From the NCBI GenBank assembly GCA_944381215.1, contig CALWKF010000004.1, positions 24,657 through 88,656 of the forward strand: 64,000 bases of DNA, written 5' to 3'. The notes beneath the pieces are model-generated. The model searched no databases. It saw only the letters and a list, made by a program, of their open reading frames with translations, and was not told the DNA's origin. The position numbers and the translations under genes were made by a program. Shown here one piece after another: positions 7,095 through 58,831 of the stretch. The stretch's first letter is position 1; each line of letters starts with the position of its first letter. The stretch is from an uncultured Clostridia bacterium. GTDB lineage: Bacteria > Bacillota > Clostridia > Christensenellales > UBA1242.

Positions 7095-7640
7095 CAACAA
7101 ACCATAAAGTTGTAGTAGAACAAAGCGGATGAGATTCTTCGTCTCAGGCTTCGAGGGGCGGGCTCAGAATGCCTTCCCGCTTGCGGGAAGTCTGGCGCGT
7201 GAATGATTGGTATAATTAGAAAAGTATGTTCTCGCGCCAGCCCAGTGCCTTATATTATACAAAATATGAACAACTACGCACTCTGAGTCGACCCGCGGTG
7301 CGTAGGTGCACATCCAATCTATTTAGGTCATCCTGAGTGTCGACCCGCGTAAGCCTTCAGACGAAGGATTTATTCCACTTAAAAAATGCTAAAAAACCAT
7401 AAAGTTGTAGTAGGATAAAGCGGATGAGATTCTTCGTCAAGGGGCTACGCGGGGCGGGCTCAGAATGACAGTTATTTAATTGGTTATTGTGAAAGCAGAA
7501 TAGAACGACTTCAAAATGCCTCTATAACTCAGCGCATATAAAAAGCAACAATAGGAACATTTAGCATGACGCTGCCCGGAGGATCTCATTCCTGCCGCTT
7601 AAATTAAACCCACCCCGCGTAAGCCTTCGTAACTCAGCAT
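7095..7640. repeat. Mosaic intergenic repeat locus R1 (several modules, both orientations)
   Basis: A-module GGATGAGATTCTTCGTCTCAGGCTTCGAGGGGCGGGCTCAGAATG lies at 7127-7171 and again at about 7420-7466, with an inverted copy at 7328-7376. CUUG hairpin at 7173-7190. Long hairpin CTGGCGCG(7192-7199)/CGCGCCAG(7233-7240). GGTGCGTAGGTGCAC at 7297-7311. Confidence 0.9.
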
Positions 7641-7684: not shown

Positions 7685-7759
7685 TGGTACGCCCAGAGAG
7701 AATCGAACTCTCATTAAAAGCTCCGGAAACTTTCGTGTTATCCGTTACACTATGGGCGC
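7685..7759 (-). tRNA. tRNA-Arg (anticodon CCG)
   Basis: Reverse complement is GCGCCCA TA GTGT AACGGATA ACAC G AAAGT TTCCGGA GCTTT TAAT GAGAG TTCGATT CTCTC TGGGCGT A CCA. This gives a full cloverleaf with a TTCGATT T-loop and encoded CCA. Anticodon loop is TT-CCG-GA. Confidence 0.93.
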
Positions 7760-15179: not shown

Positions 15180-15237
15180 CGAAAAATCGTGAAAAAATGC
15201 GAAATTTTGCGTATTTTTTCGATATATTTAAATTACT

Positions 15238-15570
15238 TGCGGCTGGCGCGAGGACATACTTTTCTAATTGAAGTAATCACTTGCGCGCCAGACTTCCCGC
15301 AAGCGGAAAGGCATCCTGAGTGTCGACCCGCGTTAGCCCTTAGACAAAGGATCTCATCCCTGCCGCTTTTTTCTATTATTATTTACGGTTTGTTGGACAA
15401 AATTTTTTAGAGGATGGAATGAGATTCTTCGTCTCAGGCTCTGTAAGCAGGGCTCAGAATGACCAAGTGATTAGTATGGTTTGCTTACCGTGTGTGCGAC
15501 TTTGCACCGAGGGGCGGGCTCAGAATGACTAATATAAACCACTTTGGGCTAGCGTGCGTAGATTCTGTCT
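15238..15570. repeat. Mosaic intergenic repeat locus R2
   Basis: Composite copy (reverse orientation) at 15241-15366. A-module at 15414-15463. GTGTGCGACTTTGCACCGAGGGGCGGGCTCAGAATGAC at 15492-15529. Confidence 0.9.
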
Positions 15571-20626: not shown

Positions 20627-21067
20627 ATGGGTAGAAATTTAGTTTACAAACTTTTGGGCGCACTCGTTGTGCTGGTGGCCGCTGTTTTGTGGCTGTTGTC
20701 GGTGCTGGTGCCCGAAACTTTTAGTTGGTTCAGCCTCGCTTGGGCTGGCGTAATGATTTGCGGAGGACTGGGCTTGATAATCTTGCTACAAGGGTGCTTC
20801 CAGCAAAATGTTACCACTATTAAAAAGTTGAAAATTTGGTTTGGTGTTGCGCTAATCGTGTGCGCTTTCGGGTGTTTGATTTCGGCTATCACCATTCCAG
20901 AAAGCATTATTTGGCCAATTATCGCGATTATCGTGGCACTTGGCCTCGTGATTACCATTTTTGCCGTTCGCGGTGAACGTTGGGACGAGGGCGACAACCA
21001 CAAGGCAGGCTACAAAAATTACCACGAGCGCAAGGCCGAGGAAGAAAAGCAAAACGAAAACAAATAA
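20627..21067 (+). CDS. Hypothetical membrane protein (4 TM)
   Basis: RBS AAAGGAG precedes the ATG. Four hydrophobic helices are followed by a charged C-terminal tail. Confidence 0.65.
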   Translation: MGRNLVYKLLGALVVLVAAVLWLLSVLVPETFSWFSLAWAGVMICGGLGLIILLQGCFQQNVTTIKKLKIWFGVALIVCAFGCLISAITIPESIIWPIIAIIVALGLVITIFAVRGERWDEGDNHKAGYKNYHERKAEEEKQNENK

Positions 21068-21120
21068 TTTAAAGGCACTTTGGTGTCTTTTTTGTTTGTT
21101 TAAAACAATTGTAAAACTTT

Positions 21121-21310
21121 GGGCTGGCGAGGTGTGTGAGTGCACACACGATAATTAATGTATAGCCGTAATTTTTAAAGGCCATAGGGCTGGCGCGAGA
21201 GCATTTGTTTCTAATTGTGGTAATCATTCGTGCGCCAGACTTCCCGCAAGCGGGAAGGCATCCTGAGCCCGCCCCGCGAAGCCTTTAGACGAAGGATCTC
21301 ATTCCTGCCT
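21121..21310. repeat. Mosaic intergenic repeat locus R3
   Basis: GTGTGTGAGTGCACACACGATAATTAA at 21132-21158 (compare 58801-58830). Composite copy (reverse orientation) at 21188-21310. Confidence 0.9.
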
Positions 21311-21322
21311 CTCAAAACAAAA

Positions 21323-21349
21323 AACACTAGTCTTGATTAGACTAGTGTT
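21323..21349. terminator. Conserved hairpin AACACTAGTCT-TGATT-AGACTAGTGTT (terminator-like)
   Basis: An 11-bp stem between convergent genes. Near-identical hairpins occur at 30547-30574 and 43509-43537. Confidence 0.6.
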
Positions 21350-21494
21350 TATAATATACTAGAAAAAAGTTTTTTATTAGTGGCTTTTTGGGGTGCTGTG
21401 CAACAATCAGTATGTCTGCCTTTAATAAAAATTAGAATTTTTAATTAATTTTTATGATTTTTTCATATTTATTTGCAATTTTTCTATATTTATT

Positions 21495-22559
21495 TTAGTC
21501 TTTTTGCTTTTCGTTGTATTTGCAAATGCCGAAGTTATCGGTGGTTACGTAGCCACTGGGTGCAGCGATTACGTCGGGAATGCGGTTTACAATAGTAGCG
21601 CAAGTCAATTCAACAGTGTTCGGGCGACTTACAACTACCGTGGTATTAGGCTCGCCGAAAATAGTCCACTCGTTCTTGTCGAAGTCCTCGGGCCCGTAAA
21701 CTTTTCCGATACACTCGGCCTCAATTTCGATGCCTTCGGCGGTTTGGGTGGTAACGACTGCGCTCATACCTGTTGCGTTTCCGCTAGGAATGGTCATGTT
21801 GAGGGTGCTACTGTTTAGGTCGCCCTCGTGGGTCATCGGCACGCACTTTTGAGTCTGTGAAACGACAGTCAAGCCCAATTTGCTAGCCAACCAGCCGTTC
21901 ACATTCCACATGTAACTGGGCGCATACTTTCCACTTTCGATAATCTTTTGACGCTCTTCGGCAGAAATTTTGTCGGCAGAAGCGACTTGCTCGTCAAATT
22001 CTTTAAGATTTAGCCCAGCACCGTGCGCCCTTGCCAGCGCGATGCCGTAGTCCTCAACGTTGTAACTACTGCTACCTTTAATTTTTGTGATTTTGTGGGT
22101 AACGCCCGCGATAGTTGTAATCAAGTTGCCCCAGAAAACGTCCTGGTAACCAGCGCCAGTGATTGTACAGCCGTTCTTTTTAGCGGCCTCGTCGATTTGT
22201 TTAAATAGATTTGGGTTACTGTTTTGAGGGAAGAAGGCCTCTTCACAGGTGGTGATTGCGTTCACACCCGCATTAGCGCACGCCAGCAGAGGCTCTGCAC
22301 AGTCCGCGAGCAAACTCATTGTGGTAACGATTGCTACATCAGGAGCGATTGCTTTGAGTCTTGCCACCATGTCCTGATTTGCCGACTCAATTGCGACACC
22401 GAGTTTGCCGACCCCAGCGAACTCGCCAGCATCGGTACCAAACTTGCTCTCGTCAATGTCGAAAGCCCCGACACATTCCATACCACGCTCAATGCAGTAC
22501 CTGATTGTGTATTTTGCCATTTTTCCGCAACCATATTGCACGAATTTAATTTTTGCCAT
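21495..22559 (-). CDS. NAD(P)-dependent amine dehydrogenase / DapB-N-like oxidoreductase (2,4-diaminopentanoate dehydrogenase-like)
   Basis: The N-terminus MAKIKFVQYGCGKMAKYTIRYCIERGMECVGAFDID has a Rossmann pattern like that family. Length is 354 aa and a good RBS is present. Confidence 0.5.
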   Translation of the reverse strand: MAKIKFVQYGCGKMAKYTIRYCIERGMECVGAFDIDESKFGTDAGEFAGVGKLGVAIESANQDMVARLKAIAPDVAIVTTMSLLADCAEPLLACANAGVNAITTCEEAFFPQNSNPNLFKQIDEAAKKNGCTITGAGYQDVFWGNLITTIAGVTHKITKIKGSSSYNVEDYGIALARAHGAGLNLKEFDEQVASADKISAEERQKIIESGKYAPSYMWNVNGWLASKLGLTVVSQTQKCVPMTHEGDLNSSTLNMTIPSGNATGMSAVVTTQTAEGIEIEAECIGKVYGPEDFDKNEWTIFGEPNTTVVVSRPNTVELTCATIVNRIPDVIAAPSGYVTTDNFGICKYNEKQKD

Positions 22560-30165: not shown

Positions 30166-30334
30166 TTCATACCTCCCAAACAAGCAAAACCCAAAACTTG
30201 TTTTAAAAAGTATACAAAATAGTCGCAAATTTGTAAAGTAATTTAATTTGTAAACAGAAAATTAATTAAAAAATCGCAAAAAATTAACTTAAAATTCAAA
30301 AGTTAGTAAAACTAGCCTCAATTTAATATAAAAA

Positions 30335-30574
30335 GGAATGGGATCCTTCGTCTCAGGCTTCGCGGGTCGGCACTCAGGATGACCAAGTAATTTTAATTAG
30401 TATTTTAACGAAACACAACTACACATACTATTTTGTTGTTAGTACGGCTACGCTTTAATTATAGTGTATGCGACTTCGCACCGCGGGTCGAGGCTCATTT
30501 TAAGACGAAGAATCTATTCCTCTAAAAACAAACATATTAAAGAAAAAACACTAGCTTAGATTAGGCTAGTGTTT
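30335..30574. repeat. Mosaic intergenic repeat locus R4 (includes the conserved AACACTAG hairpin at 30547-30574)
   Basis: A-module at 30335-30384. Chimeric copy GTGTATGCGACTTCGCACCGCGGGTCGAGGCTCATTTTAAGACGAAGAATCTATTCC at 30464-30522. Confidence 0.9.
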
Positions 30575-30636: not shown

Positions 30637-32331
30637 TTAACCTATTTCATCATCTACGTTGTTAGTGGTGGAGTTGGTTTGGGAGTCGGTGGGAGTGGGG
30701 GCGAAAACGGCGGTTAAGATTTTGCCCTCAACAAGGTTGTAAGGGATGTCTGCACTGCTTCCGTACTGAGATAGGTCGGTGTCGTCGTTGGTTTCCCAGC
30801 GGACAAAGTAATAGCCCGATGTGGCCACTGCGCTCACGTGAATGGTGGTTAAATTTTCCGTGGTCGTGTACCCAGTTATTCGCGCTTCGCCCACCGCCTC
30901 GAGGTTACTCCCATTCCCACCACTCACTTGCAACGCAACGCCCTCCAAATTCACCCCACCACTGCTAGGGGTGTAACTTTGGGCGATGCCCACAAATATC
31001 AAATTAATGGTAACATCGGCTTGAATATTGAAAATTTCGAGGTGTAGTTGCGAGCCTGTGGTGTTTGTTAGGTATGTAATTCCTAGGCAACTGCTGTCCA
31101 CCCCTAGCGCGCCGTTGATACTCTCGAGCCTTTGCTCTGCGCCACCATTTAACTGAATCGCATAAATATATCGATTTGAATTAAATGTTAAGGTATATCG
31201 GGTGGAAAGGTTGAGCCTTTCGGTACTAGTGCTAGCAATTTCGGAGCCACTTGTATTCGATGTTATTGTAATTTGTGGCAACCTAAAATACGCAGTATAA
31301 GTCTCGCTCCCAGTTACCGCAAAGGTATACGGGTTCTCATAAAATCTATTTCCGCTACTATCTTGCCAATAATCAAAAATGTACCCGTTTATCGCCGTGG
31401 CTGAAATCGTGGTGTTACCCGAATAACTTGTGTCATATTCACCACCGCCGCTAACCGAACCCTGACTGGCATCACTGGTCTCTACACTTATTGATGTAGT
31501 AGCATTTTCAGCCAATGCCGACAACGATATATGACACGCAGGGCGCACGCCGTAGCTACTTACACTTGCTTCCTGTGAAGTAACAGAATTTGTGTTATCA
31601 AAACAAATTGCCCAAAGAGCAGTAATACCAGAAATTGTTTGTGTTGACCCAGAGCGTGTCCAACAGTTGTTAGTCAATGTTGTGCTAAACCCCCTATCAT
31701 TATTATCAAGCCCCCAAAAACTAAACAATTCATAAAAACTAGGAACCCAATAAATGTCCTCAACATCATCTGAAAAAGGTAACAGCCCCTTCTCACTGCT
31801 CACACCACTATAGGTATATTGCTCTTGCTGAGCTTCTTGGTATTGTGAGCTTACTTCATAAGGGGTAACAATGATAGAATCCAAAACGGGATACTCTTGT
31901 AAATGAGCTTGAAATAAATCAATTGTTTCTTCTCGAATATATGAAGTTTGATAATCATTCATAATTCTTGACCAATGAAACATACTAGTTGTAAACGGCT
32001 CGGTCATCCAAGCGGTAATCGTGTCGCTGTCATTTGGGTCGCGATAAACCACTTGCCAATCATACCCAGCCATTGTAAACACAATTGGTGTGCCTTGGTC
32101 AAGTACACTAACTTGCCCTACGCGAGTGCCCAGTCTTTGAACAAGCGAATTATATGTATTTTTATCAACAAAAGTCCCACCTTCGTCAAAAATGTTCCCA
32201 ATACTTGTATAATTTGAATTAAGTATTGCACTCACTGGTTTGCGTGAAAAACTAATAAAAGAAAACAGACCGAAAAGAAGCAAAACAGTAACAAAAACCG
32301 CTACCGCAAAATTGATTTTTTTATTTATCAT
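30637..32331 (-). CDS. Secreted/cell-surface protein with InlB-B-repeat-like modules
   Basis: Signal-anchor (INFAVAVFVTVLLLFGLFSFISF). A domain ends in the SSYGVRPACHISL motif. Two ...GYxFxxW... modules are present (INGYIFDYWQDSSGN and TSGYYFVRWETNDD). Confidence 0.6.
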   Translation of the reverse strand: MINKKINFAVAVFVTVLLLFGLFSFISFSRKPVSAILNSNYTSIGNIFDEGGTFVDKNTYNSLVQRLGTRVGQVSVLDQGTPIVFTMAGYDWQVVYRDPNDSDTITAWMTEPFTTSMFHWSRIMNDYQTSYIREETIDLFQAHLQEYPVLDSIIVTPYEVSSQYQEAQQEQYTYSGVSSEKGLLPFSDDVEDIYWVPSFYELFSFWGLDNNDRGFSTTLTNNCWTRSGSTQTISGITALWAICFDNTNSVTSQEASVSSYGVRPACHISLSALAENATTSISVETSDASQGSVSGGGEYDTSYSGNTTISATAINGYIFDYWQDSSGNRFYENPYTFAVTGSETYTAYFRLPQITITSNTSGSEIASTSTERLNLSTRYTLTFNSNRYIYAIQLNGGAEQRLESINGALGVDSSCLGITYLTNTTGSQLHLEIFNIQADVTINLIFVGIAQSYTPSSGGVNLEGVALQVSGGNGSNLEAVGEARITGYTTTENLTTIHVSAVATSGYYFVRWETNDDTDLSQYGSSADIPYNLVEGKILTAVFAPTPTDSQTNSTTNNVDDEIG

Positions 32332-32478
32332 ACCTACGCTCCCCATACCCCTACTTATTTTTTAGTAAAATATTTCTAAACACACTATAATTATATAAAA
32401 ATTTACTAAAAGTGTCAAACAATAGTAATAATTTTCTAAAATTTTCTTAACCTTATATAATAAAAAAGCGAGGTGCGT

Positions 32479-43508: not shown

Positions 43509-43602
43509 AAACACTAGTCTATATTAGGCTAGTGTTTTTGTTTAAGAGGCAGGAATGAGATTCTTCGTCTCAGGCTTACGCGGGTCGAGGCTCAGAATGA
43601 CC
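43509..43602. repeat. Mosaic repeat locus R5: conserved hairpin plus A-module
   Basis: AACACTAG...CTAGTGTT hairpin at 43509-43537, then GAGGCAGGAATGAGATTCTTCGTCTCAGGCTTACGCGGGTCGAGGCTCAGAATGACC at 43547-43602. Confidence 0.9.
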
Positions 43603-58537: not shown

Positions 58538-58831
58538 GGTCATCCTGAGCCTCGACCCTCGGTGCGTAGGCGCACACCCAATAAGAAGGATATAATCATA
58601 CGAACAACAAAATAGCACATGGTTCGTACACGCAATATATTTAAATTACTTGGGTCTGGCGCGATAGCATTCTTTTCTCATTGTAATAATCATTCACGCG
58701 CCAGACTTCCCGCAAGCGGGAAGGTATTCTGAGCCCGCCCCGCGAAGCCCTCAGACGAAGGATCTCATCTCATCCGCTTTTAAAGGCTTCTTAGCTGTCG
58801 CGGTGAGAAGTCGCACACACGATAATTAAGC
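58538..58831. repeat. Mosaic intergenic repeat locus R6
   Basis: GGTCATCCTGAGCCTCGACCC and GGTGCGTAGGCGCAC lie within 58538-58575. Composite copy (reverse orientation) at 58655-58777. GTGAGAAGTCGCACACACGATAATTAA at 58803-58830. Confidence 0.9.

Follow-up and report, generated by a model that had tools for sequence, protein, structure and literature searches.

The element of approximately 120 nt that recurs in the analyzed stretch of DNA is best explained as the composite unit of a mosaic, DNA-level system of hairpin repeats of the NTS/SRM-REP-NIME kind, a reading to which we assign a probability of about 0.6. The stretch (hereinafter the window) comprises 64 kb, positions 24657-88656 of contig C4 of a 1.22-Mb MAG of a Christensenellales-like member of the gut Clostridia (22 contigs, 94% complete). 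This genome is denoted G000 below; G005 is the sister species, and G001, G002, G007 and G010 are congeners. The repeat class itself is known from the literature (2000, 2013, 2025). The new aspects are the fixed three-hairpin unit, the architecture that is kept with changing stems across five species, the independent amplification of the unit in the sister species, and an inverted pair of units around a nuclease gene in G007.

Four copies of the composite are present in the window and, as claimed in the first-pass annotation, they are homologous end to end, with an alignment that spans their whole length. These copies, denoted here 7127, 15241, 21188 and 58655, occupy positions 7117-7247 (plus strand) and 15236-15369, 21183-21314 and 58649-58780 (all minus strand; nhmmer envelopes). 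The 21188 copy, on which this analysis is focused, is 89% identical to the 58655 copy, 87% to the 7127 copy and 84% to the 15241 copy, with E values of 1e-31 to 1e-38. The order of the modules is also the one originally described: module A is followed by a small hairpin with a 7-bp stem and a CTTG loop (hp1) and then by a hairpin with a 7-8-bp stem and a loop of about 33 nt (hp2). In the 21188 copy, read on the minus strand, module A (21259-21310, approximately 50 nt) has the outer stem ATCCT/AGGAT, in which 21297-21293 pair with 21264-21260. Next to it, hp1 (21240-21257, minus strand) reads CTTCCCG-CTTG-CGGGAAG with a 7-bp stem, and hp2 (21190-21238, minus strand) has the form CTGGCGC(A)...(C)GCGCCAG around a conserved 33-nt loop; hp2 is preceded by AAGT, such that AGTC overlaps the first C of the stem, and is followed by CC.

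A profile built from the four copies produces 97 nhmmer matches in G000, of which 28 contain hp1 and hp2 and about 69 are solo copies of A. Based on gene calls derived from ORFs, all 97 are intergenic, apart from overlaps with short ORFs of doubtful validity. Five solo A modules fall within the window (nhmmer): 7327-7376 (minus) and 7419-7468 (plus), both near the 7127 copy; 15408-15463 (plus), inverted beside the 15241 composite; 30331-30382 (plus), adjoining a surface-protein paralogue of the InlB B-repeat family; and 43543-43601 (plus). A tRNA gene (Rfam RF00005, 61 bits; 7688-7759, minus) is found at a distance of about 440 nt from the 7127 copy and its pair of solo A modules.

Within the composites, the constant companion of hp1 and hp2 is the 3' arm of A, which ends in ...CTCAGGATG-CC. 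The 5' half of A is missing in about 10 of the 28 composites, its place being taken by two other repeat modules (4 copies each) or by degenerate sequence (2 copies). The original description of the unit thus has to be corrected: the obligatory part consists of the 3' arm of A, hp1 and hp2. The exchange of the 5' half of A for other modules indicates that the system is a mosaic in which the element of about 120 nt is the commonest composite. Among the further modules, T, which contains a hairpin of the GTGCG-AAG-CGCAC type, is found just 3' of the 21188 copy and, in four of the remaining copies, stands in for the 5' half of A (near the 21188 copy, T occupies 21131-21170, minus strand, with the hairpin GTGTGCA..CACAC), and U is a repeat of about 55 nt that ends in GCGCTGAGTTACGAAGG. 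Some inserted blocks in G005 are bounded by inverted copies of T, in the manner of terminal inverted repeats. Altogether, intergenic DNA that is repeated at least 3 times in G000 amounts to approximately 24.6 kb, that is, 13% of the intergenic DNA and 2% of the genome, and the largest arrays contain up to 7 modules in 1.3 kb. Five contigs of G000 (C5, C9, C15, C19 and C20) end inside arrays, and sequences located at C2:85585 and C1:124410 in G000, both within arrays, are contiguous in G005; the arrays accordingly mark assembly breaks and at least some breakpoints of gene order.

Small GIY-YIG nucleases cut single-stranded DNA at hairpin repeats; cutting by these Ssn proteins depends on three bases before the palindrome (GTC in NTS) and binding depends mostly on the C just after it, and what has been shown is the cutting of single-stranded DNA, not the movement of repeats (Chenal et al., 2025; PMC11893778). 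On the complement of the strand that carries the G(CUUG)C loop, 79 solo copies of A conform to DGTC-ATCCT...AGGAT-C (reading GTCAT-CTGAG), with GTC directly 5' and C directly 3' of the palindrome; the base that precedes GTC is G in 53 copies, T in 16, A in 10 and C in none. In composites, module A (on the plus strand in the 21188 copy) likewise consists of a tag, the palindrome and C. The tag, however, is GGC and not GTC in 27 G000 copies (...ATGCC on the G(CUUG)C strand), and this holds in all five species. The degenerate pattern published for SRM matches the genome at 3 sites, none of them in the repeats, compared to 3-6 matches in shuffled sequences, and the CGTC tag of the REP superfamily (PMC3733652) is absent from the repeats, the units of which are 45-50 nt long and not 20-40 bp.

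The same type of hairpin accompanies small GIY-YIG reading frames in several other genera of the same family. Among the four such loci examined, which encode proteins of 94-118 aa, three contain a gene flanked on both sides by hairpins of the GTCAT-CTGAG...GA(G/A)AATCTC type, one of them almost identical to A; the hairpins flanking the fourth are more diverged. Besides these genera, a small GIY-YIG gene flanked by repeats is found in the congeners G002, G007 and G010. In G002, the flanking hairpins share the GTCAT...ATC frame and differ in their interiors, and the encoded protein has Y6, Y17 and E64 exactly at the positions mutated in Neisseria SsnA (comparison with PMC11893778). The Ssn-like family, with 6199 proteins at E ≤1e-10, is highly conserved across phyla. 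The matches listed (P0001-P0120) show 65-76% identity across distant phyla, with labels that include Bacteroidota, Caldisericum, Ignavibacteriales and WOR-3, and are encoded mostly on contigs of 1-3 kb, suggesting that the flanking repeats routinely break assemblies. The contigs with the small GIY-YIG gene are 1.7 kb long in G002 and 2.6 kb in G010. Contigs of 1-3 kb are usually dropped when MAGs are binned. We detected no Ssn-like gene in G000, G005 and G001 (MAGs that are 75-94% complete), where the GIY-YIG domain is present only in UvrC; because genes of this kind are mostly found on very short contigs, this absence is weak evidence. Judging from the sequences, module A is kin to the Ssn-associated hairpins of these relatives. 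As a DNA hairpin type that accompanies Ssn in related bacteria, it makes a repeat acting at the DNA level a more likely identity of the element than a small RNA gene family.

The hp1 and hp2 hairpins, in turn, are a lineage-specific addition. In 27 of the 28 G000 copies, hp2 is preceded by AAGT, with AGTC overlapping the first base of the stem, and it is followed by C. This tag-like frame is located on the strand opposite to the tag strand of A, such that the unit resembles two tagged hairpins joined tail to tail, the tags being separated by hp1. Together with the GGC tag of the composites and the inverted pair in G007, the frame suggests that hp1 and hp2 belong to the same DNA-level system as A.

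In G007, two inverted hp1+hp2-like copies, approximately 1.05 kb apart on a 426-kb contig, bracket an Ssn-like gene and its hairpins. The gene (95 aa) is located within C2:10100-11900 of this genome amid hairpins of the GTCATTGCGAG type, and the block is situated upstream of a surface-protein paralogue. This is a single locus, and its downstream copy, recognized by pattern, scores weakly with the covariance model. By a rough estimate, the chance that a copy falls within 300 nt of the gene, given 3-6 copies in 1.1 Mb, is a few in a thousand. The flanks of the block cannot be aligned with G000 for an empty-site comparison. It is conceivable, albeit rather unlikely, that hp1 and hp2 are the end structure of a mobile unit encoding an Ssn-type nuclease, in which case the gene-less copies (about 28 in G000 and about 67 in G005) would be its MITE-like offspring. 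If so, Ssn systems would be selfish mobile elements that operate on single-stranded DNA at replication forks, in parallel to IS200/IS605 and the PATE/REP sequences derived from it.

The element shares features with three described systems of hairpin repeats and is identical to none of them. As in the NTS/SRM system, A is a short intergenic hairpin present in many copies, its palindrome immediately preceded by GTC and followed by C, the same type of hairpin flanks small GIY-YIG genes in relatives, and the repeats cluster near surface-protein genes (for Neisseria, see PMC11893778). Unlike NTS/SRM, the element misses the SRM pattern, its hairpin encloses about 33 nt instead of a few bases, the composite tag is GGC, hp1 and hp2 are without a described counterpart, and no Ssn-like gene was found in G000. 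The NIME arrays of dRS3 and RS (PMC1797815) are similar in that mosaic arrays of hairpins alternate with other modules, differ between relatives and are enriched beside surface-protein genes. In addition, hp1 (TTCCCGC..GCGGGAA) resembles the dRS3/NTS core, although it does not fit ATTCCCN8GGGAAT because both the spacing and the end bases differ. NIME also differs in its dRS3-RS-dRS3 arrangement, compared to the fixed three-hairpin unit here, and the host in the present case is a Gram-positive-type gut Clostridia. Finally, REP/BIME and the CGTC-tagged dimers (PMC3733652) likewise contain tagged palindromes in opposite orientation with the tags inward, and they are intergenic, sometimes species-specific and assembled into larger mosaics, whereas the units described here are longer than 20-40 bp, have the tag DGTC and never CGTC, and come without a RAYT gene.

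Both hp1 and hp2 are real hairpins. In a within-clade set of 66 copies from G000 and G005, three pairs show double changes, and most stem columns are invariant, in part because the pattern used to collect the copies fixed those bases. A cross-species set of 33 copies from five species is more variable: 97.8% of the cells pair in an alignment that was fitted to a covariance model, which favors structure, and changes on both sides are observed in 9 of the 16 pairs. The covariation score of this set is 0.308, compared to 0.112 for shuffled alignments (none of 500 reach the observed value) and at most 0.09 with slid partners. The replacement of the hp1 stem is apparent in the raw sequences, which have CTTCCCGC/GCGGGAAG in G000, CTATTTGC/GCAAATAG in G001 and GTACC/GGTAC in G007; the flanks ...ATGCC and GTCTGGC...GCCAGCC stay constant, and between them G001 and G007 have an entirely different stem. 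The outer stem of A changes in the same manner (ATCCT/AGGAT 88, ATTCT/AGAAT 34, ATTTT/AAAAT 3), with 15 single-sided intermediates that are divided 8 to 7 between the strands. The first-pass annotation had proposed a covariance model built from all copies and a search for compensatory changes, and had named stems broken as often as preserved as the outcome that would speak against it. What we find is that compensatory changes keep both hairpins, and that the covariance model recovers diverged copies in three more congeners.

These changes do not decide between RNA and DNA since DNA hairpin repeats also show them. The tetraloop, which had been taken as a sign of the sense strand, is a poor guide: in the 66 copies, the closing pair of the loop is CG in 46, UA in 18 and UG in 1, and because the outer C/G covaries to T/A, the palindrome continues to a two-base center. 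As DNA, either strand folds about equally well. The RNA folding energy of the whole element is not clearly better than that of shuffled sequences (z from -0.45 to -3.2). Wobble pairs were considered as an indication of the strand and rejected, being contradictory among hp1, hp2 and A; on the G(CUUG)C strand, the hp1 intermediates are only T.G and never A.C, and hp2 shows A.C. The sequences of the hp2 loop are conserved between species, and they are conserved more than a purely structural DNA hairpin needs, which stands against the DNA-hairpin reading.

The phyletic distribution of the unit is narrow. With the covariance model of hp1+hp2, we identified 28-30 copies in G000, 67 in G005, 9 in G001 (75% complete), 8 in G002 and 3 in G007, where a pattern search raises the count to about 6. 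The model finds no hp1+hp2 in the other 12 genomes of the genus and yields one marginal match, probably due to chance (E of about 9e-4), in 140 other genomes of the family. Similarly, no hp1+hp2 was detected at 80 metagenome loci orthologous to the 21188 site or in phage records and viral contigs, and a pattern scan of named genomes finds the hp1/hp2 junction in one other record only ("uncultured Christensenella sp.").

G000 and G005 are syntenic, with genes that are about 78% identical, and the majority of the occupied sites differ between them; most of the sites occupied in G005 are empty in G000, and in the window, G005 has empty sites at the positions of the 21188 and 15241 copies, the latter being absent from its orthologous intergenic region. 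The spacers are too diverged for base-exact ends to be read from filled and empty sites, and a search for metagenome contigs of the same species, intended to locate exact empty sites, yielded no relative of the flanking gene with more than 73% identity. The nearest neighbor comes from the same species for 63 of the 66 copies, and the mean identity of copies is 88% within G000, 84% within G005 and 83% between the two. The clustering of copies by species points to separate amplification, or homogenization, after the species split. The recent spread considered in the first-pass annotation fits these differences between sites.

The orientation of the repeats is biased. Gene-strand bias is strong in G000, and the elements run counter to the strand on which most genes of the region lie in 30 intergenic regions and follow it in 7 (p = 2e-4); the corresponding counts for hp1+hp2 copies are 18 and 6. 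In tandem intergenic regions, 31 solo A modules oppose the direction of the flanking genes and 5 share it, and the numbers for hp1+hp2 copies are 13 and 2. The G(CUUG)C strand is thus usually antisense to its neighbors. Replication and transcription are not separable as causes of the bias because local and regional direction disagree for only 5 copies (2 versus 3). Were transcription the cause, the element could be a passive RNA structure on the gene-sense strand that, in the manner of REP, stabilizes or insulates messages from within 3' untranslated or intercistronic regions. The bias does track local gene direction in the tandem regions, the gene-sense strand folds equally well, and REPs are mostly located downstream of genes, with many plausibly transcribed (Di Nocera et al., PMC3733652). 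However, the arrays that were checked lie beyond strong terminator-like hairpins, those near surface-protein genes are found upstream and downstream in nearly equal numbers (8 and 7), and a passive role in RNA leaves both the multiplication of copies and the link to Ssn-like genes unexplained, so that we regard this role as distinctly unlikely.

The suggestion of the first-pass annotation that the copies form a family of small RNA genes is not favored by the transcriptional context or by the turnover of sites. In this case, independent genes would be transcribed on the G(CUUG)C strand and act through the conserved hp2 loop. Such a function agrees with the maintenance of hp1 and hp2 by compensatory changes, with the occurrence of T.G but never A.C among hp1 intermediates on that strand, with the hp2 loop motifs shared between species, and with the 83% identity of the element between species where the adjoining intergenic DNA is unalignable. 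The compensatory changes, however, are equally expected of DNA hairpins such as REP, NTS and attC. The 21188 copy lies within a convergent spacer, between a terminator-like hairpin (21322-21350, minus) of the upstream minus-strand gene (21495-22559), the hairpin ending 12 nt before the element, and another one (21071-21090, plus) of the convergent plus-strand gene (20627-21067). No promoter-like site adjoins this copy, the only one scanned for the promoter that had been expected directly upstream, and neither hp1 nor hp2 is followed by a T run that could serve as a terminator. An Rfam search at the gathering threshold and up to E = 1 gave no family match for the element; the only hits were a tRNA and one chance-level match. 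Tandem and inverted stacks with other modules, a copy number that varies from 0 to 67 inside one genus, insertion sites that are not conserved and the antisense bias likewise speak against small RNA genes, which we consider very unlikely.

The hp2 loops themselves often contain a -10-like hexamer. The extended -10-like motif TGGTATAAT is present in 5 G000 copies, including the 7127 copy (7208-7216), and the loops without it mostly have TACAAT or TATACT. A candidate promoter at this place would direct transcription toward the 3' end of the element and hence, in most cases, opposite to the adjacent genes. A short reading frame starting from the hp2 loop was rejected by eye, as one loop type lacks the start and no ribosome-binding site is present.

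The arrays are overrepresented next to genes for predicted surface proteins. G000 encodes a family of 26 paralogues of 170-1516 aa, the scanned member of which (30637-32346, minus) contains InlB B-repeat domains. Elements are present in 13 of the 42 spacers beside this family and in 29 of the 578 spacers elsewhere (odds ratio 8.5, p = 6e-7). This enrichment, together with the gene-order breaks between G000 and G005 that fall at arrays in some cases, would agree with the hypothesis set out for Neisseria NIME (PMC1797815), namely that the host maintains arrays as substrates for recombination that accelerates surface-protein variation, the 120-nt unit being one building block. Most copies, however, including all four in the window, lie beside unrelated housekeeping genes, and longer, more permissive spacers may cause the enrichment. 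Maintenance by the host for this purpose seems improbable as an explanation of the element; it concerns a consequence of the repeats and not their spread, and it is compatible with the reading as a DNA-level mosaic.

Several other candidates were rejected. The four copies adjoin genes for a cytidine deaminase and a nucleoside diphosphate kinase (NDK), between which the 58655 copy is located, and for unannotated small proteins; the small neighboring genes are unrelated housekeeping genes (L19, NDK, cytidine deaminase, Prp and HTH proteins) and do not qualify as a source of a cognate protein. The only match to a Y1 transposase of the RAYT/IS200 kind is a decayed IS200-type gene with two TAA stops (G000:C8:29007-29338, minus), which is located on a contig without family copies and the presence of which in the genus does not follow the repeats. 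No TnpB domain is encoded in G000, so that a TnpB/omega-RNA system was dismissed as well. The pneumococcal BOX element, a modular A-B-C intergenic repeat of about 100-200 nt in a Firmicute, resembles the present element in its modular build; to our knowledge, BOX has no sequence relationship to it and no link to a nuclease gene.

Under the DNA-level reading, two tagged hairpins, one on each strand, would form a dimeric unit in which a small hairpin separates them. A would represent an Ssn-type hairpin (GTC, the palindrome ATCCT...AGGAT, C) on the complement of the G(CUUG)C strand, and hp2, with AGTC before it and C after it, would be the second hairpin, on the G(CUUG)C strand itself. The role predicted for hp1 is that of a structure-only spacer in which the sequence of the stem is free to change. 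The hairpins would function in the form of single-stranded DNA: as a rule, the strand with the A-type tag is gene-sense and, in view of the gene-strand bias, is expected to serve as the template of the lagging strand. The hairpins might be recognized by an Ssn-type nuclease that is small and structure-specific, or by another partner, and this process, along with recombination between copies, could have multiplied and reshuffled the unit. The expansions would have been separate, leading to about 28 copies in this species and about 67 in its sister.

For annotation, these observations imply that hairpins with covariation are not necessarily RNA genes when they occur in multi-copy intergenic DNA. 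The description of the Ssn nucleases and their hairpin repeats dates only from 2025 and concerns mainly Gram-negative bacteria. Here, a tiny genome of a gut Clostridia has about 2% of its DNA in mosaic arrays built on the Ssn type of hairpin, and in its congener G007, the unit flanks the nuclease gene on both sides, as the ends of an insertion sequence would. The system allows one to ask whether Ssn elements move and whether the arrays drive the variation of surface-protein genes.
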